Below are positions 7,233 through 40,084 of a DNA stretch of 56,274 nucleotides, one piece after another. The stretch is from positions 1 to 56,274 of IMG/VR virus record IMGVR_UViG_3300029258_003568; one strand, given 5' to 3'. This DNA comes from a virus. Its lineage: Duplodnaviria; Caudoviricetes. The notes under the pieces are model-generated. The model searched no databases, had not been told where the DNA came from, and was given only the letters and a program-made list of their open reading frames with translations. The translations under genes were made by a program, and so were the position numbers. Positions within the stretch are counted from its first letter, which is position 1. Each line of letters opens with the position of its first letter.

Positions 7233-7248
7233 TATTTCCCGGGAAATA
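7233..7248. promoter_or_regulatory. NBS/parS-like palindrome copy 1, TATTTCCCGGGAAATA
   Basis: Perfect 16-bp palindrome; intergenic if the next gene starts at GTG 7269. Confidence 0.8.
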
Positions 7249-7268
7249 AATATTCAGGAGGAACGCTT

Positions 7269-7814
7269 GTGGGCGGTGAATTCGAGCTTAGAATCGATTT
7301 CGACGACATTATGAGGCAGGCCGCTGCGTTCGATGCCGCGCCCGAGGTCGTGGCCGACGAGATGATGGCAGCCATGCAGGCCAGCCTGGACGTCATCGAA
7401 GCGGAGGTCGTCGTTCGCACGCCGGCAGTGATCGGCGTGTTGCGAGGCGGGATTGCGGACGAGATCCACGGCGACCCGCCGGATTTTTACGGAGAGGTCA
7501 TCGCCGGCGGACCGGGAGCGATTTATGGCTGGCCGGTCGAGCGCGGCCGGGCGGCAGGCAGGATGCCACCGCTGGACAATATCGAGTACTGGGTCAAGCG
7601 CAAAAAGTTGGATTGGAAGGATGGCCAGGGGCAGCAGATGAGCTCGCGGCGGATGGCATACATCATTGCCGTGGCCATCAGTCGGGGCCAAACGCGCCAC
7701 CAGAAAAAGGGCGGGGCAAAGATGTTCGAGGAGGGCCTGCGGTCGGCTGGGCCTCACGTCGAACGATTGTGGGAAGGTGCGGTGGAGGCCATCGCGGGGA
7801 GGATGACCGTATGA
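7269..7814 (+). CDS. HK97 gp10-like tail-completion protein
   Basis: AGGAGG then GTG; RTP..G.LR, YGWPVERGR and C-terminal K.MFE motifs. Confidence 0.65.
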   Translation: MGGEFELRIDFDDIMRQAAAFDAAPEVVADEMMAAMQASLDVIEAEVVVRTPAVIGVLRGGIADEIHGDPPDFYGEVIAGGPGAIYGWPVERGRAAGRMPPLDNIEYWVKRKKLDWKDGQGQQMSSRRMAYIIAVAISRGQTRHQKKGGAKMFEEGLRSAGPHVERLWEGAVEAIAGRMTV

Positions 7815-8278
7815 GTGAGGCGACCGCCAGGGCTGATATTTACAGCATTGTCTCGGGGGTGAGCAGCATCGGCCGGGTCCACGACTATGAGCGATGGGCC
7901 GTCAGATGGGCCGATCATTTGGATCTGTTCAAGACAACGATCGACGGTCAACAGCAGATCCGTGGATGGACGATTTCGTGCCGCTCTATGCCGCAAGGGC
8001 GGTTGGAATTTAGCGGTGCGAAATTGCGCACGTACACATATAAAATCCGGGGATATTTCGGGCTGGACGACGGTTCGGCCTCGGAGAAAACTGCCGTCGC
8101 GCTGGCGGAGGACGTTGTCGAAGCGTTGGACGCCAGCGATACATTGCACGACGGCGGATCGTACTATGATGCGCTGCCGGCCAGCATGGATGTGTTCGAG
8201 CCGCGCCTGTTTGGCGGTGTGCTCTGTCACTATGTCGAGATTTCGCAGGTTGTCCAGGAGGTCATGGATGGAACATGA
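7811..8278 (+). CDS. Tail terminator-like protein
   Basis: Position and size; coupled start. Confidence 0.55.
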   Translation: MSEATARADIYSIVSGVSSIGRVHDYERWAVRWADHLDLFKTTIDGQQQIRGWTISCRSMPQGRLEFSGAKLRTYTYKIRGYFGLDDGSASEKTAVALAEDVVEALDASDTLHDGGSYYDALPASMDVFEPRLFGGVLCHYVEISQVVQEVMDGT

Positions 8279-8468
8279 AGGATGCTATGTCAAACTAGCC
8301 GACGACCCGGCGTTCTGGCTCGTCCAGGACGGAATGCGCCTAATCGTTGCGTCGCCGGAGGAGATGTACCGGCATGGTCTGCGGCCTGTACATTGCGTGA
8401 CGGCTGAGGAGCTGGAGGCGATCCCGGTTGCGTCGGTGCTCGGTCCCACCACGGTCGACGAGGAGTGA
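8268..8468 (+). CDS. Small hypothetical protein
   Basis: AGGAGG RBS; MEHEGCYVKLADDPAFWLV... Confidence 0.5.
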   Translation: MEHEGCYVKLADDPAFWLVQDGMRLIVASPEEMYRHGLRPVHCVTAEELEAIPVASVLGPTTVDEE

Positions 8469-8469
8469 G

Positions 8470-9525
8470 ATGCGGATCTTGCTCGTTTATCCGGGCCATG
8501 CGTACTGTACGTTCGACGTGGCGCATGGCTACGAGTGCGCATTGCGCGCCTGCGGCCACCAGGTGCGGGCATTCAACTACCACAGCCACCTGAGTTTTTA
8601 CCAGGAGGCGATCAGCCACTGGGAGAAGCGAAATCCCGATTTTCGGCCACCTGACAACGCTTACCTGGTGCTGGCCAGCGAACGGGTGGCCATCGAGGCG
8701 GTGGATTTTGTGCCGGATGTGGTTCTCATAGTTACCGGCATGGCTCTCCACCGCCGGGCATTCGAGTTGTTGTACCGGTTGAACCTGCCGCTTGTCCTGC
8801 TGTTGACCGAGTCGCCATATTTAGACAGGCAGCAGGCAGTCATCGCCGAAAAAGGACATGTTGTGTTGGTCTTGGCGAACGATAAGGCCAGTGTCGTCCC
8901 GCTGCGCGAAGCAGCGGGCGTGCGGACGGAGTATCTGCCGCATAGTTTCGACTCGGCGCGACATTATCCGATGGATGTGGGTCCGGAATATCGGACGGAC
9001 GTCTTCTTCCACGGCACGCTCTGGCCGGAGCGGCGTGTCATGCTGGAATCGCTTCGATGCAACGGCCACCGGGTGCGCATCAGCGGTATAGATCCACACA
9101 TCATCGATCTCGATGATGTCGATGAGGTGCTGAAAAATCAGGTGGATAATGTCGAATTGGTGCGATGGTACAACGGCACCCGGATCGCGCTAAATCATCA
9201 CCGGACGTTCATCGGTGTGACGGAGCAGGGGGAGGAAAAACACATTTCTCATGCAGCCTGGAGCCTGGGGCCACGGGCGTACGAGATCGCCGCGTGTGGT
9301 GTGTTTCAGCTGTGCGACGATACACGGCCGGAGCTGGAAGTTTTTGGCGATACCGTGGCCACGTATCGCGATGCCAAAGACCTGCAGGCCAAGGTGGATT
9401 ATTACCTGGCTCACGATGACGAGAGGGAAGAGATGGGATGGGCCGCGTACGATCGAGTGCAGGCGTGCTCATTCGACGATCGGGCTGAACAAATTCTCAT
9501 TCCATTATTAAAGGAGGTTTTGTAG
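8470..9525 (+). CDS. Glycosyltransferase, GT-B fold (CgeB-like)
   Basis: MRILLVYPG N-terminus; DVFFHGT, RIALNHHR, PRAYEIAACG and C-terminal YYLAHDDEREEMG motifs. Confidence 0.8.
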   Translation: MRILLVYPGHAYCTFDVAHGYECALRACGHQVRAFNYHSHLSFYQEAISHWEKRNPDFRPPDNAYLVLASERVAIEAVDFVPDVVLIVTGMALHRRAFELLYRLNLPLVLLLTESPYLDRQQAVIAEKGHVVLVLANDKASVVPLREAAGVRTEYLPHSFDSARHYPMDVGPEYRTDVFFHGTLWPERRVMLESLRCNGHRVRISGIDPHIIDLDDVDEVLKNQVDNVELVRWYNGTRIALNHHRTFIGVTEQGEEKHISHAAWSLGPRAYEIAACGVFQLCDDTRPELEVFGDTVATYRDAKDLQAKVDYYLAHDDEREEMGWAAYDRVQACSFDDRAEQILIPLLKEVL

Positions 9526-9915
9526 ATGGGAGCACCATTTCATGGCAAGAACGGATTGATCTATGTCAGCGGTACCGAGATCACCGGGGCGAATGCCTGG
9601 AACGTCGCTATCACGCAGGACAGCGTGGAGACGCCGCAGTTCGGCGATTCGTGGAAAAAGCGGACCGTCGGGATGGGCGACTGGAGCGGCAGTATCACGG
9701 CCTGGCAACACGACGATGCCAAGCTGCTGGCCGACGCTGCGACCGCCGGTGCGTCAGTTGCACTGCTCATTTATCCCAGCAAGAACAGCCTGACCGACTA
9801 CTATTCGGGCAACGGCATCTTTGGATTTTCCAGCGACGGCGGGGTGGACGCTGCCGTCGGCACGACGGGCGATTTCGTCGGGGATGATACGCTGACGATC
9901 GCCGGATTTTCATAA
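9526..9915 (+). CDS. Major tail tube protein
   Basis: HGKNG start, FGDSWK...G..DWSGS motif; precedes chaperone and tape measure genes. Confidence 0.75.
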   Translation: MGAPFHGKNGLIYVSGTEITGANAWNVAITQDSVETPQFGDSWKKRTVGMGDWSGSITAWQHDDAKLLADAATAGASVALLIYPSKNSLTDYYSGNGIFGFSSDGGVDAAVGTTGDFVGDDTLTIAGFS

Positions 9916-9934
9916 TCTCTAAGGGGAGGCTTTT

Positions 9935-10357
9935 ATGGCTGGAGACAAGCCGAAATGGCGGCCGGCGACGCGCACCGTTTATGCCAATGACCTGGCGTTC
10001 GTCGACGATGCCGGCGAGACGCATTTCCCGCGCGCGGGCGAGTGGGTCCGGTTCAAGCGACGGTTCAAGATGAAACTGCTGCGCGTGGCCGCCCGTCTGG
10101 AGCGCCTCAACGACGACGACGCTGGCGTCGCCGAGGTGGAGGAGGCATTCGGCCGCCTGGCCGAACTGCTGGCCGAGCAGGTGGTGGACTGGAACTGGTC
10201 GGACCTCGACACCGAGCCGGATGAGGAGGACAATTACCCACCGCTGCCACCGCCCACCGTCGACGCGATGTGGGAATTGTCCCAGGACGAATTATTCTGG
10301 ATCCTGGACAACATGATGGAAGAGACCGAGGCGTCAAAAAACTCAGAGTCGCCGTAA
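9935..10357 (+). CDS. Tail assembly chaperone (G)
   Basis: Between tube and tape measure genes; slippery site near the 3' end. Confidence 0.75.
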   Translation: MAGDKPKWRPATRTVYANDLAFVDDAGETHFPRAGEWVRFKRRFKMKLLRVAARLERLNDDDAGVAEVEEAFGRLAELLAEQVVDWNWSDLDTEPDEEDNYPPLPPPTVDAMWELSQDELFWILDNMMEETEASKNSESP

Positions 10358-10596
10358 GCAAATTTGCTTACGGCGAAGGTCACACACCTTATCCGCTGCT
10401 CGAGGCGATGTTGTGCGAGGCGTACAGTTGTCTGCCGTCGCAGTTGGACGGCGAGGACGCCGGACGGCTGCTGGTTGGCCAGGAGGTGTTGGCGCTCTAC
10501 TATGCATTTGAGAAGTTGAAGCGGGGCGCCAAGCTCAGTTCGGCGGAAAAGAAGGCAATTGGTGAGGTCCTGGAGGCTGAATTAGAGAGAGGGTAA
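10336..10596 (+). other. -1 programmed frameshift site A AAA AAC and GT-type chaperone extension
   Basis: In-frame TCA AAA AAC at 10334-10342; -1 frame open to 10596. Confidence 0.75.
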
Positions 10597-18307: not shown

Positions 18308-19753
18308 TTATTGGTGTGGTTCCAGCCGGATGTATGTTATCTGCCGGTTCTCTATTCCGATTCGGATGCCGATCTCGAGGAGTGCGGTGTTGATTTCCAG
18401 GTTGGTCATGTCGGGACGGTTGGCCAGGAGGTGAGTGATGGTTTGTTGGCTGACGCCCAGGTCCGGGATGTTGGTGAGTCGCGCCTCGAGGGTCGCTCTC
18501 TCTGTTTGTAGTTTGTCTAGATCCTCGAGTAGGATGTCGTCCGAGGTGCGATACATTTGCGGGTCGAGGTGGCCAGAGGCGAGGGCGAGGGCGAGGCGCT
18601 GTCGTTTTTGTTCGAGGTTCTCGAGGGTGCGTCCGATTTCGGCCAGGCGGGTGGGCAGGTCGCGGGTGTCGTGGGAGGTCAGGGCGGCGGCGAGGGCGTC
18701 CAGGTTATTGTGATCGGCCAACCAGGTGAGGAGGGTCTTCAGTACGAGGTCTTCTTTGATCTGGTTATTGTGGCAGGTGCGGCTGTGCTGATGTGTGCTG
18801 CATCGGAGCCGGTAAGCCCGGCTGCTTCTGCGGATCATGTTGCCGCCACAACGACTACAGATGGCTACCTGGTAAAGTGGCGAGCCGGCACCGCGCCGGC
18901 CCGTACGCTTCTCGCGCCGGCCGCGTTCTCTGAGGACGGCTCGATAGGTGTCGGTGTCCCAGAGCGCGGGAAAGTGAGCCGAGGGTTGGCTGTTCCTGAC
19001 GTCGCCGGCGGTGACGTAGCCGGCGTATATGTCGTTGAGCATCATGTCGCGGACTGTGCCATATCGCCAGGTCTGCGCGTAGGGCGGACGGTGGATTGAT
19101 GCGTCCAAGACGGTGGCAATGCTTTGATAGGTCTCGCCACGCAAGTACAGGCCGGTGGCGAGTTTGACAGCTCCGATGTGGTCGTCGAATTCGGCGCCGA
19201 TGGTTTTGCCTCGATCGTCGCGGACGGCGCGGTAGCCGAGTGGCCAGTGGTTGAGATGGAGTCCTCGCTGAATGCGTTTTCTGATGCCGGCTTTGTAGTA
19301 GCGCACCCGGCGCCGTTGCTCTTCGCCGGCGCGCACGCTTTGGATGGCGTAGACGTAGCGCGCGCCAACGGTCTTTTGACCAATGGTGTGTGGGGCGCTG
19401 GCCAGGTAGACTTCGGCGCCGGATTTTTCGACGAGGCTGACGACTTGGTTGGAGAGGGCGGGATCGCGGCCGAGCCGGTCGGGGTCGATGGCGTGGAGTA
19501 TGTCAAGGTTGGCGTTTTCGCAGTCCTGGCGGAGCTGGCGGTAGGCGGGCATGGTGGCTTCGGCGTCGGTCCAAAAGATGAGATCGCGGGTGTGACCGGG
19601 GATGCGGTAGATACGGACGATGTGGCCGCCGATGGCTCGGGCGAATTCCCGGCCGGCACGCTCTTGGTCTTCCAGGCTGATTTTGTCGTCGCCGGCCTGG
19701 TGCTTGGAGGAGACGGCGCACCAGATGGCGATGCGGACGGGCCGGTCGGTCAT
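18308..19753 (-). CDS. int: Large serine recombinase (integrase)
   Basis: N-terminal AIWCAVSS..Q, DPDRLGR, recombinase domain (PLGY, NDIYAG), Zn ribbon CSRC..RC..C, coiled coil. Confidence 0.9.
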   Translation of the reverse strand: MTDRPVRIAIWCAVSSKHQAGDDKISLEDQERAGREFARAIGGHIVRIYRIPGHTRDLIFWTDAEATMPAYRQLRQDCENANLDILHAIDPDRLGRDPALSNQVVSLVEKSGAEVYLASAPHTIGQKTVGARYVYAIQSVRAGEEQRRRVRYYKAGIRKRIQRGLHLNHWPLGYRAVRDDRGKTIGAEFDDHIGAVKLATGLYLRGETYQSIATVLDASIHRPPYAQTWRYGTVRDMMLNDIYAGYVTAGDVRNSQPSAHFPALWDTDTYRAVLRERGRREKRTGRRGAGSPLYQVAICSRCGGNMIRRSSRAYRLRCSTHQHSRTCHNNQIKEDLVLKTLLTWLADHNNLDALAAALTSHDTRDLPTRLAEIGRTLENLEQKRQRLALALASGHLDPQMYRTSDDILLEDLDKLQTERATLEARLTNIPDLGVSQQTITHLLANRPDMTNLEINTALLEIGIRIGIENRQITYIRLEPHQ

Positions 19754-19757
19754 GGCT

Positions 19758-19771
19758 ATTTCCCGGGAAAT
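19758..19771. promoter_or_regulatory. NBS/parS-like palindrome copy 2
   Basis: ATTTCCCGGGAAAT in the 21-bp gap before the integrase start. Confidence 0.8.
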
Positions 19772-19774
19772 GTG

Positions 19775-20875
19775 TCACTCATCATCTGCTGAGTATATGT
19801 CTGTGAGGTGAATGTTTTTCCCGTCGTAGGTCCCAATGATTACGACGTATTGTCCAAAATACGATCTGACTAGATCGTCTAGTCCTTCTTCTACTAATAC
19901 ATTGTATTCGTTGTCATCTGTGGTCAGGCCGATGATGTCTTTTTGTCGGGATGTTGCGTAATCGAGCAGTCCTTTTACTTTTATCGGGGTGTGTTTCACG
20001 TCCTTTTCATCGGATTCGGGGGGTGGCAATACGATGTCTCTGCGCTGTCTTGTCAGGGTGACAGATTGCTTTGTGCTGGCAAAGCCCACCAGGCTGACTT
20101 TTTCACCGTCGGGTGCTACATCTCGGGCCATAGATACAAAGTGTCGATAGTATGCTTGTTCGGGGATGCGTTCTTTTAGTTTGTCTTCGTTGGATTTGCT
20201 GATGTGTTCGATCCCTGTTAAAAATTCGTCGATCACTTGTGCTGCGTCGAAAAACAGGGGCATTTGTCTGTGGTCTTCTGTGCGTATGAGCTTGAAGGCT
20301 ATGGCAAAACTGTGTTGATCCGGGATTACTAATGCCTGGGTAAAGGGTTTATATATCTGTGCGACTCGGCCCGCTCGCTGATAGTTTCTGTGCATCAATC
20401 GCTGTACGGTCCGATCAATTAGGGAGCGGGTCTTTTCGATTCTGCTGATGAATTCGCTGTAGAGGATCATTCCAGGGCCGACGGCCTTGCCCTGCAGGGA
20501 TAATTGTAGGGCTTCATCTTCGAGCTCTTCTCCACGTTCTTGAAGGTGCAATTGGAATTCGATTTGTTCGTATAGATTTTTCAGGTCTTGTTCTGTTTTT
20601 GAAGGGGGATAGCCAGATAGGCCCTGGGCGACGAGTCGTTGGGCGGCATGGAGTTCTTTGCATTGATATGCGAGGGAGGCCGCGCTAAGATATAGGATGG
20701 AGCGTGTGGGTTCTGATGATGCATGATGTGGAATAAGGTCTGCCGCCTGGGATTCGTACTCATAGGCCTGGTATGCCAGGGTTGTGGTCTTTTCTAGATT
20801 TCCTTCATGATGGGCCACCATGGCCAGTTGGGCCAGTTTCATGGCTTCATTATGTAGCTCACGAACGTTGCTCAT
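19775..20875 (-). CDS. TPR-like N-domain protein, partner in a putative defence or toxin-antitoxin pair
   Basis: RELH..AM.LA...EPTRSILYLSAASLA helical domain; low GC; ATGA overlap with the upstream gene. Confidence 0.7.
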   Translation of the reverse strand: MSNVRELHNEAMKLAQLAMVAHHEGNLEKTTTLAYQAYEYESQAADLIPHHASSEPTRSILYLSAASLAYQCKELHAAQRLVAQGLSGYPPSKTEQDLKNLYEQIEFQLHLQERGEELEDEALQLSLQGKAVGPGMILYSEFISRIEKTRSLIDRTVQRLMHRNYQRAGRVAQIYKPFTQALVIPDQHSFAIAFKLIRTEDHRQMPLFFDAAQVIDEFLTGIEHISKSNEDKLKERIPEQAYYRHFVSMARDVAPDGEKVSLVGFASTKQSVTLTRQRRDIVLPPPESDEKDVKHTPIKVKGLLDYATSRQKDIIGLTTDDNEYNVLVEEGLDDLVRSYFGQYVVIIGTYDGKNIHLTDIYSADDE

Positions 20876-23660: not shown

Positions 23661-23993
23661 CTACTGGCCTCTCAGCCGCCACTTTGCAAATTCCAAGACG
23701 AGATCTTGTTCTTCCTGGGGCAGCCGCCTCACTACTTCTGCCACTTCCTGGGCCGTCCGGTCGCCGCCGGGCAGAGAAGGCAACAACCCGGCTCGCCGGA
23801 GGACATATTCGGGTGGTTCTCTGAATGCGCGGGCGATGCCAAGGCAAAAGTCAAGACCAGGGTTAGACTGACCACCCAGGACCATAGAAATGGTGGAGGT
23901 CCTTAACTCAGCCCGTCTTGAGAGTTCTGACTGTGACCATCCATTTTCCCGGAGTGTATCTATAATCCATTTATTGAAAGAATTGTTCATCAT
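23661..23993 (-). CDS. XRE-family HTH repressor 2
   Basis: WSQSELSRRAELRTSTISMVLGGQSNPGLDFCLGIARAF. Confidence 0.85.
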   Translation of the reverse strand: MMNNSFNKWIIDTLRENGWSQSELSRRAELRTSTISMVLGGQSNPGLDFCLGIARAFREPPEYVLRRAGLLPSLPGGDRTAQEVAEVVRRLPQEEQDLVLEFAKWRLRGQ

Positions 23994-24047
23994 GCTGAAA
24001 GTATATCAGCAAACTTTATAGAAACATCGAGCAATTTGTTCAACTCC

Positions 24048-24076
24048 TTGACAAATACGCCAAACTGTGGTACAAT
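24048..24076 (+). promoter_or_regulatory. Second rightward sigma70 promoter
   Basis: TTGACA-17bp-TACAAT with extended TG. Confidence 0.85.
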
Positions 24077-24113
24077 GTTCAACAGAGCGAGTATTTTGCT
24101 AGAGGTAATGAAA

Positions 24114-24287
24114 ATGACCGACGAGAGGTTGACAGAAGCCATTAGGGTAAGAATGCCGCCCAGTTTGTTGAGAGCAATTGAAGAACAAGCCAAAAGGGAG
24201 CGGCGCAGTGTTTCGGCGATGGCTCGCATTCTGATGCAGCGTGCTATTACCTCTTGTGTACTACAAACCGCCTCGGACAAAGTATAG
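24114..24287 (+). CDS. Arc/CopG-like ribbon-helix-helix regulator
   Basis: IRVRMPPSLLRAIEEQAKRERRSVSAMARILM. Confidence 0.8.
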   Translation: MTDERLTEAIRVRMPPSLLRAIEEQAKRERRSVSAMARILMQRAITSCVLQTASDKV

Positions 24288-24299
24288 GAGGGAGATGAG

Positions 24300-24407
24300 A
24301 TGATCAAACGGATTTACGAGCTCGTTTGGGCGTGGATGAGGCGGCTTATTACGGGCAGGGAGCTTTCCCAGGAGTTAGGGTATCTGTTGATCGGGTTGTG
24401 GCTCTGA
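24300..24407 (+). CDS. 35-aa hydrophobic/amphipathic peptide
   Basis: AGGAGGGAG RBS; MIKRIYELVWAWMRRLITGRELSQELGYLLIGLWL. Confidence 0.45.
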   Translation: MIKRIYELVWAWMRRLITGRELSQELGYLLIGLWL

Positions 24408-24581
24408 TGACTCTCCCTCTTGGGCCGGTCTGGTTGGGGTGACCGGCCCAGGGGGGAGCGCCGGAGGAGGCGCTCTGCCAAATCCCCCCCCTTTTTACGC
24501 GCGCGGGTGGGACAACGAACTATCGGGATGCTTGTTTGGTTGGCTATGATGCAGGTCTCCCACCCGCGCGGTGGTTGAACT

Positions 24582-24830
24582 TTACAAATTCTCCTCGCTC
24601 GGGGATGGTAGGTTTTCGGGGCCGCCTATGATTTCAATAAAGTAGTTTCGTTGCTGCTTCAGTAAGTCAAATATCTCGGAAAAGATGTCGCGCAGCACTC
24701 CATCCGGCTCACCGTCTACCAATCCTCTGATGTGATTTGTGATTTCGGTTGTGATTCTGTCATAGTGTTCTATGTCCCGTTCTCGTCGGGCATGGGTCTG
24801 CTGTTTCAATTTGTCAACTTTGTTTTGCAT
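24582..24830 (-). CDS. Hypothetical helical protein
   Basis: AAGGAGG RBS before the ATG at 24830. Confidence 0.6.
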   Translation of the reverse strand: MQNKVDKLKQQTHARRERDIEHYDRITTEITNHIRGLVDGEPDGVLRDIFSEIFDLLKQQRNYFIEIIGGPENLPSPSEENL

Positions 24831-24907
24831 GGCAACCTCCTTGCTCGATATGGCTGGAATTTCTTTATATTCTATCATGATCCTTAAGGAAAAGAAAGGA
24901 GGCATTC

Positions 24908-27323: not shown

Positions 27324-27496
27324 CCGCACCCCCCTCCTCCTTTTGCTGGGGCAGGATCGGGTCAGTCAGGCTGCCGGTCCTGCCCGAATCATCCGCCGAT
27401 GTTGCTGCCCGCTAGCCCGACCGCGATACCAAAAGTGGAGCCGCTGGAGCGAACGCGGTAAGTTCCAGAGCGGGCAGGAGGATCGGATGGAAGGAT

Positions 27497-27510
27497 ATTT
27501 CCCGGGAAAT
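27497..27510. promoter_or_regulatory. NBS/parS-like palindrome copy 3
   Basis: ATTTCCCGGGAAAT, intergenic, before the tyrosine recombinase gene pair. Confidence 0.8.
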
Positions 27511-27525
27511 GTAGGGGGGAATTGA

Positions 27526-27783: not shown

Positions 27784-28727
27784 GCGTGAGTGAGTCGAGG
27801 AGTATTCGACCCCAGCAGGGTCGGGAGCTGGATCAAAATCCAGCGGCCGTTTACCTGGCCGGCCTGGGTCGGGGCAGCCGGCGGGCGATGCGGCACGCCC
27901 TGGACGTCGTCGCCGACCTGGCCAGCAATGGCCGGGCCGGCATCTGGGATCTCGAGTGGTCCGCGCTGAGGTTTCAGCACACACAGGCGATCCGCAGCCG
28001 GCTGACCGAGGTCTATGCGCCGGCGACGGCTAACAAGACATTGTGCGCGTTGCGCGGAGTACTAAAGTCGGCCTGGCGGCTGGGCCTGATGACTGCCGAG
28101 GATTACCAACGAGCCGCCGACGTGGCGCAGGTGCCGGGCGAGGCACTGCCGGCCGGCCGGCACATCGGCCGGGAGGAGCTGGTTGCGCTGAGAGATGCGT
28201 GCCTCCGTGATCCCGGTGCGGCGGGAGCGCGGGACGCGGCCATCGTTGGGCTGCTGTACACCTGCGGGCTGCGGCGGTCGGAGGTCGTGAGCCTCGACCT
28301 GGCGGACTATGATCGGGAGAGCGGGGCGCTGGCGATCCGGCGCTCCAAGCGGGGCCGGGAGCGGCTGGTCCACGTGGTCAATGGTGCGGCGTCGGCGTTG
28401 GGCGATTGGCTGGCGGCACGTGGCCTCGAGGACGGGCCGCTCTTTTGTCCCGTCCGCAAGGGTGGCCGTCTGGCCGCTGGCCGGATGAGCGGGCAGGCGA
28501 TCTATAACCTGCTCAAGCGCCGGGCCAGCCAGGCGAACCTCGGCGAGGATGTGACCATCCACGACTTTCGCCGGACGTTCATCGGTGAGCTGCTCGATGC
28601 CGGCGCCGACATTGTGACAGTGCAGCAGCTCGCCGGTCATGCCAGCCCGACAACGACGGCGAGGTATGATCGCCGGCCGGAGAAGGTGCGGCGGCGGGCT
28701 GCCGAATTGCTGCATTTTCCCTACTAG
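27780..28727 (+). CDS. Tyrosine recombinase (XerC/D-like)
   Basis: GLRRSE, HDFRRT, LAGHASPTTTARY: complete R-H-R-H-Y catalytic set. Confidence 0.92.
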   Translation: MSVSESRSIRPQQGRELDQNPAAVYLAGLGRGSRRAMRHALDVVADLASNGRAGIWDLEWSALRFQHTQAIRSRLTEVYAPATANKTLCALRGVLKSAWRLGLMTAEDYQRAADVAQVPGEALPAGRHIGREELVALRDACLRDPGAAGARDAAIVGLLYTCGLRRSEVVSLDLADYDRESGALAIRRSKRGRERLVHVVNGAASALGDWLAARGLEDGPLFCPVRKGGRLAAGRMSGQAIYNLLKRRASQANLGEDVTIHDFRRTFIGELLDAGADIVTVQQLAGHASPTTTARYDRRPEKVRRRAAELLHFPY

Positions 28728-29131
28728 GCCCATGTTTCCTGTAGTAAAGCCCGCGCCGCGGAACCCGCGCGCGGGCTATCAAAACCAACCCGGTTCACCC
28801 TGTCGATGAGAGCAGAACTAAAACAATGTCATTGGAGCGACGGTCAAGCGACACTAATTTCGGGATTCGAGAGCGGTTTTGCCAACCACACGCGGCTGGC
28901 GCTCGCGCCCGTCGCGAAAATTTCGGCGCTCGTGCTGGGCAAATTTCGGCGCCGTTGGTGAACATAATTCGATTATGAGAATGAAAATTCTCGATACACA
29001 TCTGGTCACGACGACCCAACCCAAGTCGCGGCGCCGGGGGGGGTGGGTCGTTTCGGCCAGAGAGACGCCAAGGTGTTCGTTTTGGTGCGCGGCTAACGCA
29101 CCAGTTTTGTAGAAAAGTCGGAGACGTTGAA

Positions 29132-29686
29132 ATGGATGACGGATTGGTGGCCGAGGATCTAGGTCCAAACGACCTGCTCCTCTTGTCCTACGACAACAAA
29201 CTGTACGTAATGCCTGCGCCAGATGCAGAGCCCGTAGCGATATTTGATGCACAGCAGGTCATCGAAGCATTAGGGGCCGCAGCGTGCAACAACCAGACCA
29301 AGATCGCAACTCTGAAGGGAATACAGGGCTATACCGTGCAACGATTTGGCGGACCTGAACGATATCGGGCAGCACAAGCTATCAAGATCGCCGAGGAAGC
29401 ATTGGAACTGGCGCTGAGGGTTCTGATTCGCGATACGTCCCTGGAACGAGCTACAAGGAGCGTACAATTACGGTTGCAGGTGATGTTCGACCGGCTGACC
29501 AATGGGGAGGAGGTCCTCTTGAAGCTGGATGACCTCGGCAGTGATCAACTAGCCGGAGAACGCGCGGATGTGTTGATGGCACTGTGTTGCGCCGCCGAGG
29601 TTGATGGCCAGGACCTTATGGTCGACGGTGTCAAGAGAGCCAATAGAGATGTCGGTCGCGGAATGAGATGGACGTTAAAGCTGTAA
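29132..29686 (+). CDS. MazG-like NTP pyrophosphohydrolase domain protein
   Basis: KIAEEALELA...LAGERADVL acidic helix pair. Confidence 0.5.
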   Translation: MDDGLVAEDLGPNDLLLLSYDNKLYVMPAPDAEPVAIFDAQQVIEALGAAACNNQTKIATLKGIQGYTVQRFGGPERYRAAQAIKIAEEALELALRVLIRDTSLERATRSVQLRLQVMFDRLTNGEEVLLKLDDLGSDQLAGERADVLMALCCAAEVDGQDLMVDGVKRANRDVGRGMRWTLKL

Positions 29687-29868
29687 ACCATTGTGAAGCG
29701 GCCATAGCCGAAGTGATCGCCGCTGCACGCCAGTTGGATAACATCCATCGGATGATCGAAAGGTTCCACTTTGTCTCTGGCCATCAGGAGGCTAAACGTC
29801 GTTTGAGGTATGCACTGGAATGGCTAGATCGGGAGGAGAATAGTCCGGGCGCGGGTTCCGGCACGTGA
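29668..29868 (+). CDS. Hypothetical protein
   Basis: Overlapping coupled ORF. Confidence 0.5.
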   Translation: MDVKAVNHCEAAIAEVIAAARQLDNIHRMIERFHFVSGHQEAKRRLRYALEWLDREENSPGAGSGT

Positions 29869-29896
29869 GGATGGTTACACGAAAGGGAACAACATC

Positions 29897-30298
29897 ATGG
29901 GACATTACGCCTGCATTGACGATGATTGCCGAAAACGACCAGGACTCGCGATCAAGCTCTACTGTCCTCGCTGCCAGGCATGTGCGTGTGTTTTCGATGG
30001 ATTGACTCCAGCGAAGCACATCGAACGAATAAAAAGACAGCTAAACCAGGGTCGGAAACCGATGGGAGATTCTCCGCTCTTGTCCACGTTGGTTCAAGTG
30101 AATCAACAGGAAAGACAGGAGCAGATCTTGGAGACAATGACGAACGCTAACGGCACAATAGAGCTACAAGAATTGGTTGAACTTCTCCAACTGTCTCCTT
30201 ACATGATCAGAAATGATCTGTCGACAATGAAACAAAGAGGGTTGGTCACTCAACGGGGGCGAGGGCCCGCCACACGATGGGTGCTGATTGAGAAATAG
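29897..30298 (+). CDS. Zn-finger plus DeoR-like winged-HTH protein
   Basis: C..C/CPRC N-terminus; LQELVELLQLSPYMIRNDLSTMKQRGLV. Confidence 0.7.
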   Translation: MGHYACIDDDCRKRPGLAIKLYCPRCQACACVFDGLTPAKHIERIKRQLNQGRKPMGDSPLLSTLVQVNQQERQEQILETMTNANGTIELQELVELLQLSPYMIRNDLSTMKQRGLVTQRGRGPATRWVLIEK

Positions 30299-30333: not shown

Positions 30334-31212
30334 GTGGGAGCATACCTGCAGGAACTAGGAAAAAGCATCTCATTTGGCCGATTGTCGCTGATGGGCAAGG
30401 TATTGTGGCCGATGCTCCTGGCCGCGTCGGACGATCAGGGCCGGGGACTGGCCGACGCGGATGTTCTCAAGTGGACGGTCTGCCCAAATGTGGCCGAAAT
30501 CACGATCGATGACATTCCCACCATCCTGGACGAGATGGTAGCCCAAAAGATGATCGTGCTGTACGAGGACTCCCGTGGGCGAGCAATATACCAGATCATC
30601 AACTGGTGGGTTCATCAAAAACGACGGTTCGCTCGCCCATCACTGTACGACGCCCCCGAGGGATGGACGGACCGCGTCAGATTACAACAGGGACGAAAAC
30701 AAACCCTGATAAACTGGGACCAACCGGGGGGATTTATCGGCCAGGAGAGTCTGCCTGAGCCTGAGACGAATAGTGGTAAACAAAACAACGGACAATACGG
30801 TGGACAATACGGTGAGCAATACGAGGGACAACACGGGGGACCTGAACTAAACCGATCTGAACTAAACCAACCTAAACCACCCCCCCCTACCCCCCCCGAG
30901 GGCGGTGGTGGTGGTGGAGATTCTCTAGGACAATGGCTGGAAATCTACGAACAAAACATAACCGAACAAATCCGGCCGGCAGCACGAGAGCAAATTGAGA
31001 CCGTGTTCCGAGATCCACACGTGAATTACGAATTGTGGTCGGATGCCATCGGTATCGCTGTGGCAAACAACCAGTTAAAGCTCTCATACGTGCTGGGAGT
31101 CATCCGCAAGCGCAGAAATGGCAGCGGACCCGGACCGCCCGCTACCGGTAAGAAACCTATCAAGCTGACGGGTAGTTTACCGGGACGAGGGAGACGAGAT
31201 GAGCCAGACTGA
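30334..31212 (+). CDS. Phage replication initiator (DnaD-like C-terminus)
   Basis: SDDQGRG and YQIINWW..Q N-domain; LSYVLGVIRK; precedes dnaB; internal direct repeats. Confidence 0.75.
   Translation: MGAYLQELGKSISFGRLSLMGKVLWPMLLAASDDQGRGLADADVLKWTVCPNVAEITIDDIPTILDEMVAQKMIVLYEDSRGRAIYQIINWWVHQKRRFARPSLYDAPEGWTDRVRLQQGRKQTLINWDQPGGFIGQESLPEPETNSGKQNNGQYGGQYGEQYEGQHGGPELNRSELNQPKPPPPTPPEGGGGGGDSLGQWLEIYEQNITEQIRPAAREQIETVFRDPHVNYELWSDAIGIAVANNQLKLSYVLGVIRKRRNGSGPGPPATGKKPIKLTGSLPGRGRRDEPD
30778..30879. repeat. Iteron-like repeats within the initiator gene (candidate origin)
   Basis: 12-bp ggacaatacggt-type units x4, then ctgaactaaacc x2. Confidence 0.65.
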
Positions 31213-33556: not shown

Positions 33557-34180
33557 ATGAGAGGATTCGTGTTCGTCTCCGGGCTTCTGGTAGTTGGAAT
33601 AGCTGCTTTCGTCCTGGTAAATGTCGCCAGCAGCAGCGGTCCATCGCCGAGTTACCAGGCGGCGATGGAGGCACAGCGGCTGGAGACGGCGGCCAGGATG
33701 TGCCATCTCAAGGTCGTATTTTGGTACGTTCTGGCGGGGATCACCCTGCTCGGCCTGGCCGGATTGGCGGTGGCAGCCGTGCGGGCGACCTGGTCCAGGT
33801 CCGGCTGGATTCGACCCGACGACCGGGGACTCTACCCGGTGGTGCGTGGCCAGGTGGGCAGGCAAACTTATTACCACGACCCGAATCGCCAGCTGGCCGG
33901 GGCGGTCGCTTACACGGCTGGCCGTGATGGCCTGAAGATCCAGCAGATGCTGCCGGCGGGCGCAGAGCACGAACAACTCCGGGTGACCACGCAGGCCCAG
34001 GCGGCGCAGGTCGTCGCGGCGGCCGGGCGCAGCCAGGAGATGAGGCCCAACGCGCGGCGCCTGGTCGAGCGGATGACCGAGCCGCAGCCCGGCCCACCTC
34101 GGTTGCCGGAAGTAGTGACGGAATTGGATGGATCGGAGCGCCACCTGTTGGAGGCGATCCGGCAGGATTGGGATGATTGA
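33557..34180 (+). CDS. Two-TM membrane protein coupled to FtsK
   Basis: Two hydrophobic helices; overlaps the FtsK start. Confidence 0.7.
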   Translation: MRGFVFVSGLLVVGIAAFVLVNVASSSGPSPSYQAAMEAQRLETAARMCHLKVVFWYVLAGITLLGLAGLAVAAVRATWSRSGWIRPDDRGLYPVVRGQVGRQTYYHDPNRQLAGAVAYTAGRDGLKIQQMLPAGAEHEQLRVTTQAQAAQVVAAAGRSQEMRPNARRLVERMTEPQPGPPRLPEVVTELDGSERHLLEAIRQDWDD

Positions 34181-35577: not shown

Positions 35578-35741
35578 AGTGGTGCCAAAGATCGCATCCT
35601 ACGCCCGACGAATCCGACGTGACCCGGCGGGGAATGTGTACCGCCGAAGGGCTTTTCTTTTTCCTGCCGGCCGGAAAATCGTTCAACGTTTGAGTCAGGC
35701 TGGATTGAGGCCCGAGCGGGGATCGACCGGGAGTAACGACT

Positions 35742-36284
35742 ATGCTTTGTGATGGGTGTCTGCTTTTGATAGGAAATGGTTTGTCAGAGGAAGTGAGACG
35801 AGTTCTCTATCGTCTGAATACCCTGAAAGAGACGACCATCCGTGACCTGGCCAGGGACATGGATCAGAGCGTCTACGAGACGCGAAAGGCCTTGGTCTAT
35901 CTCAAGGGAGCAACTCTGAGCTGGGGGGATTGGTCGGCCTACAGTGTCTCTCCGGCAGGTGAGAAATTTATTGAACTACAGGTTCAGGCTGAAAAGCCCG
36001 AGGTGATCGCCGATATGCTATGCGACACTTGTCTGTTGGAGATCGGTGAGGCGCTCTCGGAACGAGAGGCCGATATCTTGGGGTGTTTTTCAAGTCGGCC
36101 GATAACGCGCCATCAGCTTGTGGTGGACACGGGACTCAGCCTGCACAAGGTGCGGGAAGGTCTTATGCTTCTGCAAGGTGCGCGCTTGGTAGGAGTGCGC
36201 TCTTCCCGCGTGTTTCACCTTTCTCCAGAGGGACAACGATTGGATTATTTGTTGCGTAAGCAGCTGGTTTCATCGGGAGGATAA
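35742..36284 (+). CDS. Tandem winged-helix protein (TubR-like position)
   Basis: Two ~90-aa repeats, each MLCDxCLL-x-IG followed by wHTH and SPxG wing. Confidence 0.7.
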   Translation: MLCDGCLLLIGNGLSEEVRRVLYRLNTLKETTIRDLARDMDQSVYETRKALVYLKGATLSWGDWSAYSVSPAGEKFIELQVQAEKPEVIADMLCDTCLLEIGEALSEREADILGCFSSRPITRHQLVVDTGLSLHKVREGLMLLQGARLVGVRSSRVFHLSPEGQRLDYLLRKQLVSSGG

Positions 36285-36285
36285 T

Positions 36286-37533
36286 ATGAATAAAAATCGA
36301 AGTGTGGACTATTCATTCGTGGGGGCCGGCGAGGGCGGGGGCCGGATCGCGGCGACTTTTGGCCGGATGGGCTACGTCGCCGGTGCGATCAATACGTCCT
36401 CCAGCGACCTAGATGGCCTGAAACGGTTGCCGGCCAGTCACCGGCTGCACATCCACACCGGCCTGGGGGTCGGTGGGGCGGGGCGAGATCCATCGGTGGG
36501 CCGCGATGCGGTGCTGGCGCACGAGGTGGAGATCCGCGATTTCATGCGCGACCTCGTGAGCCAGGCAGACCACGTCATGCTATGCGTCGGTGGTGGCGGG
36601 GGCACCGGCACCGGGTCGATGGGCGACCTGGCCCGCATCCTGATCCGGGATCTTGGCCGACCGGTGGGAATCATTTACACGCTGCCCGGCGACGAGGGGA
36701 CGTCAGCTCTGGCTAATTCTGTCCGGGGGCTGCGCGGGCTCTACCAGCTCGCCGAGGCGGGGTCCGTTTCGCCTCTGGTGCTGGTGGACAACGCTCGTGT
36801 CGAGGAGCTCTTTCCCGAGGTGAGTGTAGGCCACCTTTGGGGCAAGATCAACCAGCACATTGCTGACGTGTGGGACTCATTCAACAGGTTGAGCACCCGC
36901 CGGGGCTGGCAGGTCGCCACTCTCGACAGCATGGACTATTATCTGAATGTGGTCCAGGCCGGCAAGTGCGCCTCGTTGGGCCGGGCTATCATCCAGGATC
37001 TCAAGAGTCCGTTGGCTCTAAAGCGAGGGGTGAGCGAGGCGATGGCCTCACTGGTGCGGGGCTACGACCTGGCCACGGCCTCGGCGATCGGCGTCATCGT
37101 CATCGGCTCGGAGGGTACGTTGAACCATCTGCCGAAAGATTATCTCGGAGATGGGTTCAGAGCCATCGAAAGCATCTTGAGCGGGGGACATATTGTGCGG
37201 GGGGTTTATGCCGACGAGCGATACCGTCACCTGCACGTGTACGTGTTCGCCAGCGGGCTAGACCTGCCGGCGAGGGTCCACGACCTGGCCGCTGAGGCTC
37301 AGGTGCAAATGAACGCGCTGCGTGAAAAGATGTCACAGCGGAGCGACCCGCTGGACATGGACTTTTTGGAGAACAACTGGCTGGGCTTGTCGCGTCAGCA
37401 GCAGGGCAACGGCAACGGCCTGGACACGGCGTTCTCGTGGATGGACGGGGGCGGTGGCTCGGGCCGGCGGTTGCCGGCGAGGAGTGGGCTGGCGGCGTTG
37501 GCGGAGCGGAAAAAGAGGAGAGGAGGGAGGTAA
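36286..37533 (+). CDS. Tubulin/FtsZ-superfamily GTPase (TubZ/RepX-like)
   Basis: GAGEGGGRIA, AINTS..DL, GGAGRDP..G, GGGGGTGTG signature, LVDN, T7-like TLDSMD, basic C-tail. Confidence 0.92.
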   Translation: MNKNRSVDYSFVGAGEGGGRIAATFGRMGYVAGAINTSSSDLDGLKRLPASHRLHIHTGLGVGGAGRDPSVGRDAVLAHEVEIRDFMRDLVSQADHVMLCVGGGGGTGTGSMGDLARILIRDLGRPVGIIYTLPGDEGTSALANSVRGLRGLYQLAEAGSVSPLVLVDNARVEELFPEVSVGHLWGKINQHIADVWDSFNRLSTRRGWQVATLDSMDYYLNVVQAGKCASLGRAIIQDLKSPLALKRGVSEAMASLVRGYDLATASAIGVIVIGSEGTLNHLPKDYLGDGFRAIESILSGGHIVRGVYADERYRHLHVYVFASGLDLPARVHDLAAEAQVQMNALREKMSQRSDPLDMDFLENNWLGLSRQQQGNGNGLDTAFSWMDGGGGSGRRLPARSGLAALAERKKRRGGR

Positions 37534-37534
37534 G

Positions 37535-37840
37535 ATGCAAAAGATCATTCATAAGGGCAGGACATTCGTGGCGTACGCCGTAAAGGAGCTCGTCCGCAGG
37601 ACGGGACGGGGACGGTCTGCGTGGGCGCGCTACCTGGTAGGCCGGTTGGCCGGTGGCACGCGGTTCGAGTTTCTGTTGGGCTTCCTCTCGGCGGCTGAGG
37701 TGCGGGCTTATGTTGGCCGGCTGCCGGCAGGCTGGTCGGCAGTCCGGGCGATGTGGAATCAGATGATCGAGCGGCTGGGCGTGGCGCAGGCGCTGGTTCT
37801 CGGCGATGGGCTGCGGGAGAACGTGCTGGCTTTGGTTTAG
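37535..37840 (+). CDS. Basic hypothetical protein
   Basis: GGAGG RBS; lies between the tubulin and ParB genes. Confidence 0.6.
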   Translation: MQKIIHKGRTFVAYAVKELVRRTGRGRSAWARYLVGRLAGGTRFEFLLGFLSAAEVRAYVGRLPAGWSAVRAMWNQMIERLGVAQALVLGDGLRENVLALV

Positions 37841-37852
37841 GGAGGAAAGGCA

Positions 37853-40084
37853 ATGGCTCGTCCAACTCACAAGGCTGTCGCCGACGAATTGAACGTGCCC
37901 ATCAGCTCGGTGGCTATCGTGAGGGAAGTGCTGGCCGGCACGTCCGCTGATGCCGTGCGAGCCCGGCGGGATCGCGGCATATCAGATGCCGCCCGTTGGC
38001 TGGCGGAACGTCGACGCTGTGCGGATGCGGCGGCCGCCATCTGCAATTCTGTAATCGCAGCGATACGGGAGATCGATGGAATCCCGATGGAGGAAATCAT
38101 GAGAACTGGAACACTTTTTATCAGGGTATCCTTGGACAGGATCGAAGACAATCCATTCCAAACGCGGATCGAGTATGGCGACGTCGGTGAGTTGGCCGAA
38201 TCGTTGCTCAAGATGCGGCCTGTCCGACCCGAAACCTCCGGCCTTCTCCAGGTACCGCCGGCGAGGATCGTCCTCAATGGCCACGTACTCAACCCCGCCG
38301 AATACGGCGGCGTCGCCCCCTGCCTCGGCGACGAACCCCACGCCCGCGTCCAACTCGCCGCCGGCCACCGGCGTTATCGGGCGTTTCAGTCTCTTCACGA
38401 AGGACGCGACGAGTATGCTACTTTTCCTGTCGACGTCCAGGTGTTGGACGACCGGGCGATGGCCGACATCGCCTGGGAGGAAAATGCCAAACGTAAGAAC
38501 TTGAACGCAATCGAGGAGGCGCAGGCGTTGCGCCGGGCTATGGAGCGTTTCGGCTGGAGCCAAGCCAAGGTGGGCCTGCGGTGGGGGTTGAGCCAATCGG
38601 CAGTGGCAAACAAGCTTAGATTGTTGGGGCTTCCCGAGGATGCACAGGCGGCTATTCGTAGCGGCCAGATCTCGGAGCGGCACGGTCGCGCTCTTCTCAA
38701 AGCTGCCGGCAAATCGGAGCGCATCTACGAGCGTGCAGCTGAGGATATCCTCCCGCCGATGGTTGTTCTTGAAATAGAGAAGAAGGCGGAGGCGCATTCG
38801 TTGGTGAGTAAACAGCATTTTTGGAAGGTGACTGCCGAGGGCGATCCTCGATGTCGGGTTTGTGGTGAGTCGGCAGCCGCCATGACTTCGGGGAAGGTGT
38901 ATTGGGATGGGAAGGAGGATTTTCTTTGCCTGGCGTGCTATCGGGCTGCGACCGGTTGGGTGCCTCCATCTGTGGCTCAGGCTGAACAGGTTATCAAACG
39001 GGCGATCCAGGCTGAAAGCCGGCGGCTGGATATGGCCGAGTGGCCGTTTGATGTGGTGGTCGGCCAGGGCGATTCCCAGATCAGATCGGCGAGGTGTGTT
39101 GACTGTCAGTTTCGGGAGGCACAAGATGATGTGGAGTGGTGTTTGGATGCGGCATGTTTCAAGAGAAAGAGAGTACATTGGTATGGTTATCTCAGGGCCC
39201 GGCTGCACGAACATCTCCTGAAAATTTTCGGAGATACTGCGCCGGTAGATGATGGATATGACGGGTATGACCTGCGCAGCACCGACGAGGTCGACGTTGC
39301 GCTGGTGAGGGATGGCATTTGTGCGCCGGGCAAGTGCAAGCGGCTCAGATTCCGGTATTACACGTATAAGACAGTGCATTGTCTCAAGCCGTGCGCCGAG
39401 TTGCCGTTTGGCTACAATTGCAACAACAGTTCGTCACACCGGGCTTGCCAGCAGCGGTATCTCAAGTCTTTGCAGAATAAGGATGAGGCGGTAGCCGAGG
39501 ACCAGGCCCGGCAGGAAGCTGCCGGGCGGCGGGAAAGGGTGGGGCAATATCTGGCTCGGGCGCAACAAAGCTTGGCCCGGGCATTGCTGGATAAACATGA
39601 TGGAGCATGGCGGGGGTTAATTCGGCTGTTTGATAGTCCAGTGCCGGGGAAGGATCAATCGGCAAGCGATTCGGCAATGCAGATTGCCAGACGGATGCTT
39701 GATGCACAGGCCAAGTATATCGAGTGGACTATCTGGAACGATGAGGATTCCGTTGAACAGGCCATTGGTCGGGTGAGGGATCATATGGCAAAGCTGGGGG
39801 TGGCCATGTTGCCCAGCCTCGATGATTTGATTCGCAAACTCGAGCGGATCGAACGCTTTGTCCTCTACGATGCTTTTCATCCGCGATCCGATCTGACCCT
39901 GGAGCAGGTCGACGGCAACATGGATAATGTGGACAAGATAGGCGTCCAGCTGGAGGAGATGTACCAGGCACAGCAGATCTCGGCTGATGATTACGATCTT
40001 TTTGCCAAGCGTCTGGCGGCACTCGAGCAGGCCCTGAATATTTCCCGGGAAATGGCTCGTATAGACTCGGCGGATTCTGAATAG
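37853..40084 (+). CDS. ParB/Noc-family CTPase with long Cys-rich C-terminal extension
   Basis: NPFQTR, AGHRRYRA, ENAKRKNLNAIEEA, HTH SQSAVANKLRLL...SERHGRAL. Confidence 0.9.
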   Translation: MARPTHKAVADELNVPISSVAIVREVLAGTSADAVRARRDRGISDAARWLAERRRCADAAAAICNSVIAAIREIDGIPMEEIMRTGTLFIRVSLDRIEDNPFQTRIEYGDVGELAESLLKMRPVRPETSGLLQVPPARIVLNGHVLNPAEYGGVAPCLGDEPHARVQLAAGHRRYRAFQSLHEGRDEYATFPVDVQVLDDRAMADIAWEENAKRKNLNAIEEAQALRRAMERFGWSQAKVGLRWGLSQSAVANKLRLLGLPEDAQAAIRSGQISERHGRALLKAAGKSERIYERAAEDILPPMVVLEIEKKAEAHSLVSKQHFWKVTAEGDPRCRVCGESAAAMTSGKVYWDGKEDFLCLACYRAATGWVPPSVAQAEQVIKRAIQAESRRLDMAEWPFDVVVGQGDSQIRSARCVDCQFREAQDDVEWCLDAACFKRKRVHWYGYLRARLHEHLLKIFGDTAPVDDGYDGYDLRSTDEVDVALVRDGICAPGKCKRLRFRYYTYKTVHCLKPCAELPFGYNCNNSSSHRACQQRYLKSLQNKDEAVAEDQARQEAAGRRERVGQYLARAQQSLARALLDKHDGAWRGLIRLFDSPVPGKDQSASDSAMQIARRMLDAQAKYIEWTIWNDEDSVEQAIGRVRDHMAKLGVAMLPSLDDLIRKLERIERFVLYDAFHPRSDLTLEQVDGNMDNVDKIGVQLEEMYQAQQISADDYDLFAKRLAALEQALNISREMARIDSADSE
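40040..40053. promoter_or_regulatory. NBS/parS-like palindrome copy 4
   Basis: ATTTCCCGGGAAAT in the 3' end of the parB-like gene. Confidence 0.75.

Follow-up and report, generated by a model that had tools for sequence, protein, structure and literature searches.

Can a phage genome hold both a Noc-type DNA-binding protein and the sites that it recognizes, and how would such a pair act? This question is raised by the complete virus record IMGVR_UViG_3300029258_003568 (Caudoviricetes), analyzed here over its whole length of 56,274 nucleotides (nt; hereafter the window), in which a ParB/Noc-like gene is found together with four copies of a palindrome known as the Noc-binding sequence (NBS). 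As detailed below, comparison of protein and DNA sequences gives good support for a phage-borne cognate pair of ParB-type protein and sites, with Noc-type specificity, which looks like a self-contained protein-and-site system of the kind so far known from chromosomes and plasmids. An exact scan of the window found ATTTCCCGGGAAAT in exactly four copies (7234-7247, 19758-19771, 27497-27510 and 40040-40053), all preceded by T, as claimed by an initial annotation made from the sequence alone, and no further copy was detected when up to two mismatches were allowed. The bases following sites 1 to 4 are A, G, G and G, and hence there is one perfect 16-mer and three copies matching 15 of 16 positions; beyond that, no similarity was seen between the flanks of the four copies. 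The initial annotation gave a chance expectation of about 2e-4 under a uniform model; base composition yields an expected count of 1.2e-4, and none of 100 dinucleotide-preserving shuffles contained an exact match (mean of 0.18 at up to two mismatches). Additionally, perfect 14-nt palindromes occur 11 times in the window, and ATTTCCCGGGAAAT is the sole recurring one. Its identification as the NBS was borne out as well, the 14-nt core being identical and one copy corresponding to the full 16-mer. The motif observation in the window is thereby confirmed.

Each of the four sites of the window is situated at a gene junction, and a start codon follows at a distance of 4 to 41 nt. Site 1 is preceded at 6 nt by the stop codon of the 6487-7227 gene and followed at 21 nt by a GTG at 7269 that is provided with a strong ribosome-binding site (RBS), AGGAGG, while site 2 is separated by 3 nt from the stop codon of the minus-strand gene at 19775-20875 on one side and borders the start codon of a large serine recombinase gene on the other. 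The GTG that follows site 3 opens an 85-amino acid (aa) open reading frame (ORF) located in front of the tyrosine recombinase gene, and site 3 itself is either intergenic or overlaps the end of a doubtful 86-aa ORF. Site 4, placed 41 nt upstream of the ATG at 40095, falls inside the ParB/Noc-like gene, a fact that had escaped the initial annotation. A reading of the motif as a hairpin terminator was considered and dropped, because the stem reaches 7 bp at most and no T-run is present downstream.

The product of 37853-40084 is, by its domains, a ParB-family protein. Its helix-turn-helix (HTH) domain matches HTH_ParB (PF17762) with an E-value of 2.6e-23 and 82.5 bits against a cut-off of 22.6, and 12 solved ParB or Noc chains were matched at E 1e-8 or better, the top three being Noc chains (E 1.6e-18 to 2.5e-18), followed by Caulobacter ParB. 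In the N-terminal domain, the nucleotide-binding boxes of the ParB family (NP.Q.R, G.RR.RA and EN..R) are all present as DNPFQTR, GHRRYRA and EENAKR, with an insertion between the first two, and the box residues N100, P101, Q103, R105, G171, H172, R173, R174, A177, E210, N211 and R214 are invariant or more than 90% conserved in 41 full-length relatives. In the N-terminal extension, a second HTH, of the KorB domain, is weakly indicated (E 0.003, below the cut-off). In the C-terminal domain, 11 cysteines are invariant in 41 sequences and 12 in an eight-sequence alignment. The structural model of this domain (predicted local distance difference test, pLDDT, 71.9; predicted template modelling score, pTM, 0.38) is well predicted in its first part, poorly in the middle and helical at the end; no fold match at E 0.001 or better was found for it in the PDB or BFVD, an Atlas search with the domain returned nothing above 0.81, and a two-copy complex prediction scored 0.37 against a mark of 0.42, which weighs neither way on dimerization. 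The ParA-stimulating peptide motif [LFI]G[KR]G[LFI] is absent from the protein.

According to the accessible text of a previous study, the specificity of these proteins depends on four positions, occupied by R/T/A/G in ParB and by Q/K/K/R in Noc; adenine 1 is recognized by Q173 and cytosine 6 by R201, a single lysine at position 179 or 184 licenses binding, and Q, R and one K suffice for NBS preference (PMC7383237). In the same study, the RxxR variants RTAR, RKAR and RTKR were switched in vitro to a site that is a hybrid of parS and NBS, and the RKKR variant was promiscuous in vitro (PMC7383237). The residues named in the initial annotation agree with this code, and the HTH string from which it read Q/K/G/R is present in the translation and in agreement with the alignments to solved Noc and Caulobacter ParB. 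By HMMER alignments and column mapping, Q248, K254, G259 and R276 of the phage protein correspond to Caulobacter ParB positions 173, 179, 184 and 201, and the protein thus shows the combination of Q173, R201 and at least one K at 179/184 that marks Noc (Q248, R276 and K254). The missing second lysine poses no problem, since one lysine at either position is enough. Given these residues at the key positions and the published code, the phage protein is predicted to prefer an NBS-type site.

This prediction can be compared with what is found in relatives. A protein search returned about 40 full-length relatives (600-740 aa) and about 28 shorter ones with the ParB part only; a single-protein scan of viral contigs found no relative, and alignment-based scans provided the DNA of 19 viral and 80 metagenomic loci. 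At the DNA level, with two duplicates removed, loci were classified as Q-type when the residue at the first specificity position was Q and as R-type when it was R with R at the fourth. The 14 Q-type loci (203.6 kb) held 27 ATTTCC..GGAAAT sites and neither GTTTCC..GGAAAC nor canonical parS, and in the eight R-type loci (34.6 kb) no A-type site was found, the sites being three GTTTCC..GGAAAC 14-mers and two G-type sites with a centre one base shorter. The latter two are 15-mers with the same arms (L005:4041 and L028:2902), in which the half-site spacing would be altered. Because the site often lies in the last codons of the gene, the peptide reports the site, and it was sought in the last 110 residues of 69 proteins (P0001-P0069). 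Among 49 Q-type proteins, IS.E[IM] was present in 29, the G-type peptide in none and neither in 20, and among 17 R-type proteins VS.ET or VS[GR]K. was present in eight, both types in one, neither in eight and the A-type alone in none (uncorrected Fisher p 2.6e-8). Across the relatives, therefore, the first specificity residue (Q/R) tracks the outer variable base (A/G), and the inner variable base is C in all sites, with R at the fourth position in nearly all proteins (K in a few). R-type relatives usually carry K at 179 besides R173 and R201. This covariation is the pattern that the published code predicts, although it rests on few events. The cognate phage-encoded protein and site pair proposed by the initial annotation is supported because relatives keep the palindrome and its first base shifts with the first specificity residue. 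In a viral locus with a distant ParB relative, one canonical parS 16-mer was noticed (L021:12941). A second, far more distant ParB-like gene occurs in G001 (28372-29919), G002 (23819-24856) and L040 (18382-19317), and the window has only one such gene.

The sites are also numerous in whole related records, which contain 10 (53.9 kb), eight (56.7 kb), three (49 kb) and three (30.7 kb) of them and no occurrence of a reversed control pattern. In the complete relatives G001 and G002, with 10 and eight sites, respectively, the sites are extended to AATTATTTCC..GGAAATAATT, and many lie directly against a terminator hairpin or an RBS with its start codon. In most loci a site is located in or beside parB, being found in its 3' end in the window, L006, L024, L029, L033 and L036, 4 nt past its stop codon in L025, and in its leader in L007, L008, L037 and L040. 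The palindrome centre varies (CCCGGG, CCCAGG and CCGGGG) and the arms are conserved. In the 108 loci with a chromosomal Noc-type gene (among L043-L183, 1.52 Mb), 14 ATTTCCNNGGAAAT sites were counted, CCCAGG centres included, and the phage centre variant thus lies within natural NBS variation. The resulting density is one site per 14 kb in the window, one per 5-7 kb in relatives and one per 108 kb around noc genes.

How far the resemblance to Noc extends was examined with a quick maximum-likelihood tree of 174 rows and 122 columns, the four specificity columns removed and root and direction not set. A branch with 99% support in this tree divides the 85 viral rows from the 89 rows of chromosomal ParB and Noc. 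In the approximately unbiased (AU) test, the likelihood was better with the viral rows and chromosomal Noc constrained together than in the free search (p-AU 0.94), which was evidently shallow, and kinship with Noc is thus compatible with the data. From these comparisons, the phage protein is not a Noc orthologue, but kinship with Noc is possible. The Bacillales chromosomal Noc ORFs L119, L124 and L128 start with MK.(T/P)FSRFFG; no Noc-type N-terminal membrane peptide is present in the window protein, whose 85-aa extension is unrelated, and in the phage relatives shown with an intact start, no more than 10 residues precede the first box. The Noc-like shield entertained in the initial annotation is consequently unlikely. 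Its statement that ParA is missing holds for the window, as a hidden Markov model made from seven Soj proteins detected none in the window, G001 or G002; a parA lies directly upstream of parB in L010, L016 and L017, and L009 has one 4.8 kb away. The system is, in short, neither a Noc-style membrane tether nor a ParA-driven centromere.

On balance, it is somewhat more probable than not that the protein is an orphan, CTP (cytidine triphosphate)-gated ParB clamp with its own loading sites, acting as a KorB-like organizer or regulator in cis. By analogy with the ParB/Noc/KorB family, protein dimers would nucleate on each palindrome and, with CTP bound by the conserved boxes, form a closed clamp that slides onto the adjacent phage DNA, which would result in four protein-coated zones around the genome and in up to ten in relatives. 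The least certain step, suggested by the anatomy of the sites, is that the output would take place in cis at operon junctions, as with KorB of plasmid RK2. There, the clamp may hold or block transcription and organize the genome, with the C-terminal domain as the putative effector; among the candidate targets are the recombinase gene next to site 2 and, in relatives, parB itself. Such cis action is favoured because of the junction placement, the site at the recombinase start and the sites in the parB leaders of relatives, and because the protein is an orphan and many sites are found in complete relatives that lack a motor.

Several points weigh against this interpretation. The whole mechanism is drawn by analogy with ParB, Noc and KorB. 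The N-domain call rests on the motif boxes, because Pfam ParB_N reaches 16.5 bits against a cut-off of 26.3, the domain being split by the insertion, and the alignments to solved structures begin at residue 154. The covariation stems from few events, namely four changes of residue state on the tree and two to four independent pairs, which are all concordant but too few for a sign test. Five short loci have no site, three of them R-type and two Q-type, the latter being truncated within the gene (fragments of 1.3 and 2.6 kb); likewise, 20 of the 49 Q-type and eight of the 17 R-type proteins lack an embedded site peptide. The ParA-linked L016 and L017 (R/R) and L010 (E/K) carry GTTTTCCCAGGAAAA[CG], which the code does not explain. 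Regarding a regulatory role, a consensus scan reaching about 150 nt from the four sites detected no sigma-70-like promoter, although the host may use other promoter types, and gene junctions may also simply be the cheapest places for a 16-nt palindrome. A clamp-locking partner, which for KorB-type regulators is KorA or TrbA, was not identified in the phage, no systematic search for a KorA-like one having been made.

The main rival to the KorB-like interpretation is partition, in which the sites would be centromeres by which a plasmid-like prophage or replicating genomes are segregated or positioned, with a tubulin in the place of ParA. It draws on further points against KorB-like action, since a TubZ-like tubulin gene, missed by the initial annotation, lies next door to the ParB/Noc-like gene and distant family members occur in the parA-parB arrangements mentioned above. 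A parB-proximal site is typical of parS, as at spo0J of B. subtilis, and is counted in favour of partition. The tubulin product scores 38.9 bits with Pfam Tubulin (cut-off 33); among solved structures it is best matched by RepX, the TubZ homologue of pXO1 (2e-14), and its sole cultured-phage match is in Bacillus phage G. About 30 metagenomic relatives of the tubulin, with 30-55% identity, were seen on phage-sized contigs. Genes for a replication initiator, DnaB, a tyrosine recombinase and an FtsK-like protein are likewise present in the phage, and no iteron array was found near the tubulin gene that could be a separate tubulin centromere. However, no tubulin was found in any of 38 ParB-relative loci, none of 18 viral loci with relatives of the phage tubulin holds ParB or ParA within 8 kb, and G001 and G002, which have neither ParA nor tubulin, carry their many sites nevertheless. 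The ParA-interaction peptide is absent, the large serine recombinase suggests integration, and the 180-aa two-repeat protein encoded upstream of the tubulin may be the tubulin's own adaptor. This protein comprises two repeats of about 90 aa, each starting with MLCD.CLL, and has one homologue only in the protein database, sub-threshold winged-helix hits and a model pLDDT of 49.6; neither it nor the neighbouring 101-aa ORF matched anything above threshold in the PDB or Pfam. Taken together, partition appears unlikely. The idea of cryptic tubulins upstream of parB in relatives was rejected, the genes of about 400-445 aa found there encoding AAA_24/AAA_25 ATPases or a DnaA_N protein; as the upstream gene is thus a RecA-like ATPase or a DnaA_N protein, parB sits in a replication module in those relatives.

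Two further possibilities are less probable than partition. A hybrid machine, in which a TubZ-like filament would move or anchor genomes through a ParB/Noc-type clamp at four NBS-type centromeres, coupled by the C-terminal domain, must be regarded as a long shot. If true, it would join a type III motor to a type I adaptor, a pairing not found in the literature search. It is similarly improbable that the system is directed at the host, either with the sites recruiting host Noc or with the phage protein occupying host NBS or mixing with host Noc or ParB, and thereby disturbing division or segregation. The site is indeed identical to the NBS, the same 14-mers, with the CCCAGG centre among them, occur around chromosomal Noc genes, and the phage family could be held with chromosomal Noc in the AU test. 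Nevertheless, the site base shifts with the residue of the phage protein, which would not be expected if the sites served a host protein, the tree separates the phage family from chromosomal ParB and Noc, and the phage site density is 8-20 times that around noc genes. Nor is a host assigned: in 185,579 species genomes no prophage related to the phage was detected, the matches being chromosomal Noc or ParB at about 1e-25, and the closest cultured-phage terminases are at most 42% identical and spread over many phyla. A search for tRNA genes as a clue to the host found none in the window, and megablast of 36000-42000 against cultured phages gave no match.

It is very improbable that the palindrome has nothing to do with ParB and is instead a target of restriction or methylation (CCCGGG is contained in it), part of a promoter or terminator, or a site of recombination. 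In favour of this, a DNA methyltransferase gene lies downstream, the sites are positioned at gene junctions and a recombinase gene abuts site 2. Against it, the centre of the palindrome varies between conserved arms, which agree with the solved Noc target, and its outer base covaries with an HTH residue; no T-run, long stem or promoter consensus is found at the sites, and the motif recurs in phages that share almost no other detectable genes with the window. The exceptions are an FtsK-like gene, shared by some of these phages, a tyrosine recombinase, shared by L012 and L018-L020, and single hits to terminase, portal and methyltransferase genes in L012, L021 and L022.

The features of the window are collected in the table. 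The record is flanked by 144-bp direct terminal repeats, has a G+C content of about 58% and shows the gene layout of a temperate siphovirus in PHROG and Pfam scans. In the protease-capsid fusion ORF, an RNA-ligase-like N-terminal part (residues 60-236) is joined to head-protease and major-head PHROG matches. The ORF at 3447-6173 has no PHROG match and encodes 908 aa consisting largely of in-frame tandem repeats of 162 nt (54 aa) that are 88-94% alike (4600-6041). A 12-nt unit, GGACAATACGGG, is repeated 4.3 times at 30790-30841, inside the putative replication-initiator gene, and may represent origin iterons; near the tubulin gene, no iterons were found. Pairs of ParB-like and PAPS (3'-phosphoadenosine-5'-phosphosulfate)-reductase proteins exist elsewhere (IbrA/IbrB). 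The PAPS-reductase-like gene of the window was rejected as a conserved ParB partner, as it is not beside parB in relatives.

Table. Sites, genes and protein domains of the 56,274-nt window
Feature	Position	Strand	Remarks
Site 1, perfect 16-mer TATTTCCCGGGAAATA	7233..7248	none	41-nt gap between two structural genes
Site 2, TATTTCCCGGGAAATG	19757..19772	none	fills the 21-nt gap before the serine recombinase ATG
Site 3	27496..27511	none	15 nt ahead of GTG 27526
Site 4	40039..40054	none	embedded in the final 15 codons of parB, where it encodes NISREM
ParB/Noc-like gene, 743 aa	37853..40084	+	RBS AGGGAGG 4 nt upstream of ATG
N-terminal extension, residues 1-85	37853..38107	+	absent from most relatives
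ParB N-terminal (CTP-binding type) domain, residues 88-214	38114..38494	+	called by motif boxes
HTH_ParB DNA-binding domain, residues 215-295	38495..38737	+	Pfam PF17762; Q248, K254, G259, R276
C-terminal domain, ~450 aa	38705..40081	+	cysteine-rich first half, helical second half
180-aa two-repeat protein	35742..36284	+	weak winged-helix signal; possible TubR-like partner
TubZ-like tubulin/FtsZ-family GTPase (GGGGGTGTG)	36286..37533	+	Pfam Tubulin; directly upstream neighbour of the ParB gene region; functional link unproven
101-aa basic ORF	37535..37840	+	own RBS AGGGAGG; between the tubulin and ParB genes
Tape measure	10596		PHROG/Pfam
Tail protein	13286		PHROG/Pfam
Large serine recombinase (integrase PHROG)	18308-19753	-	start codon 4 nt from site 2
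Tyrosine recombinase	27780		PHROG/Pfam
Replication initiator (putative)	30334		PHROG/Pfam
DnaB	31199		PHROG/Pfam
FtsK/SpoIIIE-like ATPase	34177		PHROG/Pfam
PAPS-reductase-like gene	40095	+	PHROG/Pfam; directly after the ParB gene
DNA methyltransferase	41238	+	PHROG/Pfam; in the 40095-42101 stretch after ParB, 1.2 kb downstream
Terminase	48320		PHROG/Pfam
Portal	49864		PHROG/Pfam
Protease-capsid fusion ORF, 994 aa	52358-55342	+	PHROG/Pfam

The Noc-type DNA code, tied to chromosomal Noc of Bacillota in the accessible published work, would now extend to a phage-borne family with its own sites, and NBS-like motifs in metagenomes thus need not mean Noc. Literature searches found no phage-encoded Noc-type ParB and no NBS-type sites on phage, in line with the view taken in the initial annotation that no such case had been described. 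The family may provide natural counterparts of the engineered ParB-to-Noc intermediates, with R173/R201 proteins beside G1/C6 sites and Q173/R201 proteins beside A1/C6 sites, and hence a natural test bed for the reprogramming of DNA specificity. The covariation and the AU result also raise the question of whether Noc and the mobile-element proteins share an R201 ancestor. ParB-parS and Noc-NBS already serve as DNA-labelling pairs (PMC11109969), and the phage protein and its site could become an orthogonal one. When the site is embedded in the last codons of the gene, the protein sequence alone reveals the cognate site, which is useful for mining. Finally, orphan ParB clamps with 3-10 junction sites suggest an unstudied KorB-like layer of phage gene control or genome organization.

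Dispersed sites are known from other mobile elements: the IR1-4 sites of N15 are dispersed, and the OB operators of RK2 comprise several sites spread over the plasmid. P1 ParB and N15 SopB are also ParB-family proteins of temperate phages with few inverted repeats, N15 having four (IR1-4; PMC7205306), but they act with a ParA/SopA partner on plasmid prophages, whereas the window has no ParA and carries a serine recombinase. In the type III TubZ-TubR-tubC systems, a TubZ-like gene likewise adjoins the gene of a DNA-binding protein on a temperate phage; however, TubR is a small winged-helix protein that binds iterons, unlike a ParB clamp (PMC7762940, PMC6009700). A 2025 survey of the ParB-CTPase fold reports orphan ParB proteins on prophages, and the words "NBS" and "tubulin" were not found in the accessible part of its main text (PMC12704722). 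The engineered PtoN (ParB-to-Noc) variants described in the available text of PMC7383237 have their likeness in the natural R173/R201 relatives, which carry GTTTCC..GGAAAC, that is, G from parS and C from NBS; the difference is that both proteins and sites of the relatives are natural.

With Noc, which acts with NBS in nucleoid occlusion of Bacillus subtilis (PMC7383237, PMC8429893), the phage system shares the 14-nt core of the site (and one full 16-mer), the Q/K/R residues, the N-domain boxes and the HTH. Noc is, however, encoded by a chromosomal gene of Bacillota located beside soj-spo0J, whereas the phage protein belongs to a virus record and is taken to act on its own 56-kb genome; it lacks the Noc membrane peptide and has an extra cysteine-rich C-terminal domain of about 450 aa. 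KorB of plasmid RK2, according to the accessible text, is a ParB-family CTPase that works as a sliding clamp not just for segregation but for gene control at the OB operators (PMC11790492). Although KorB has ParA (IncC) and the clamp-locking KorA as partners and its OB sequence is other than the phage site, both systems combine a ParB-family protein on a mobile element with several identical palindromes near gene starts.

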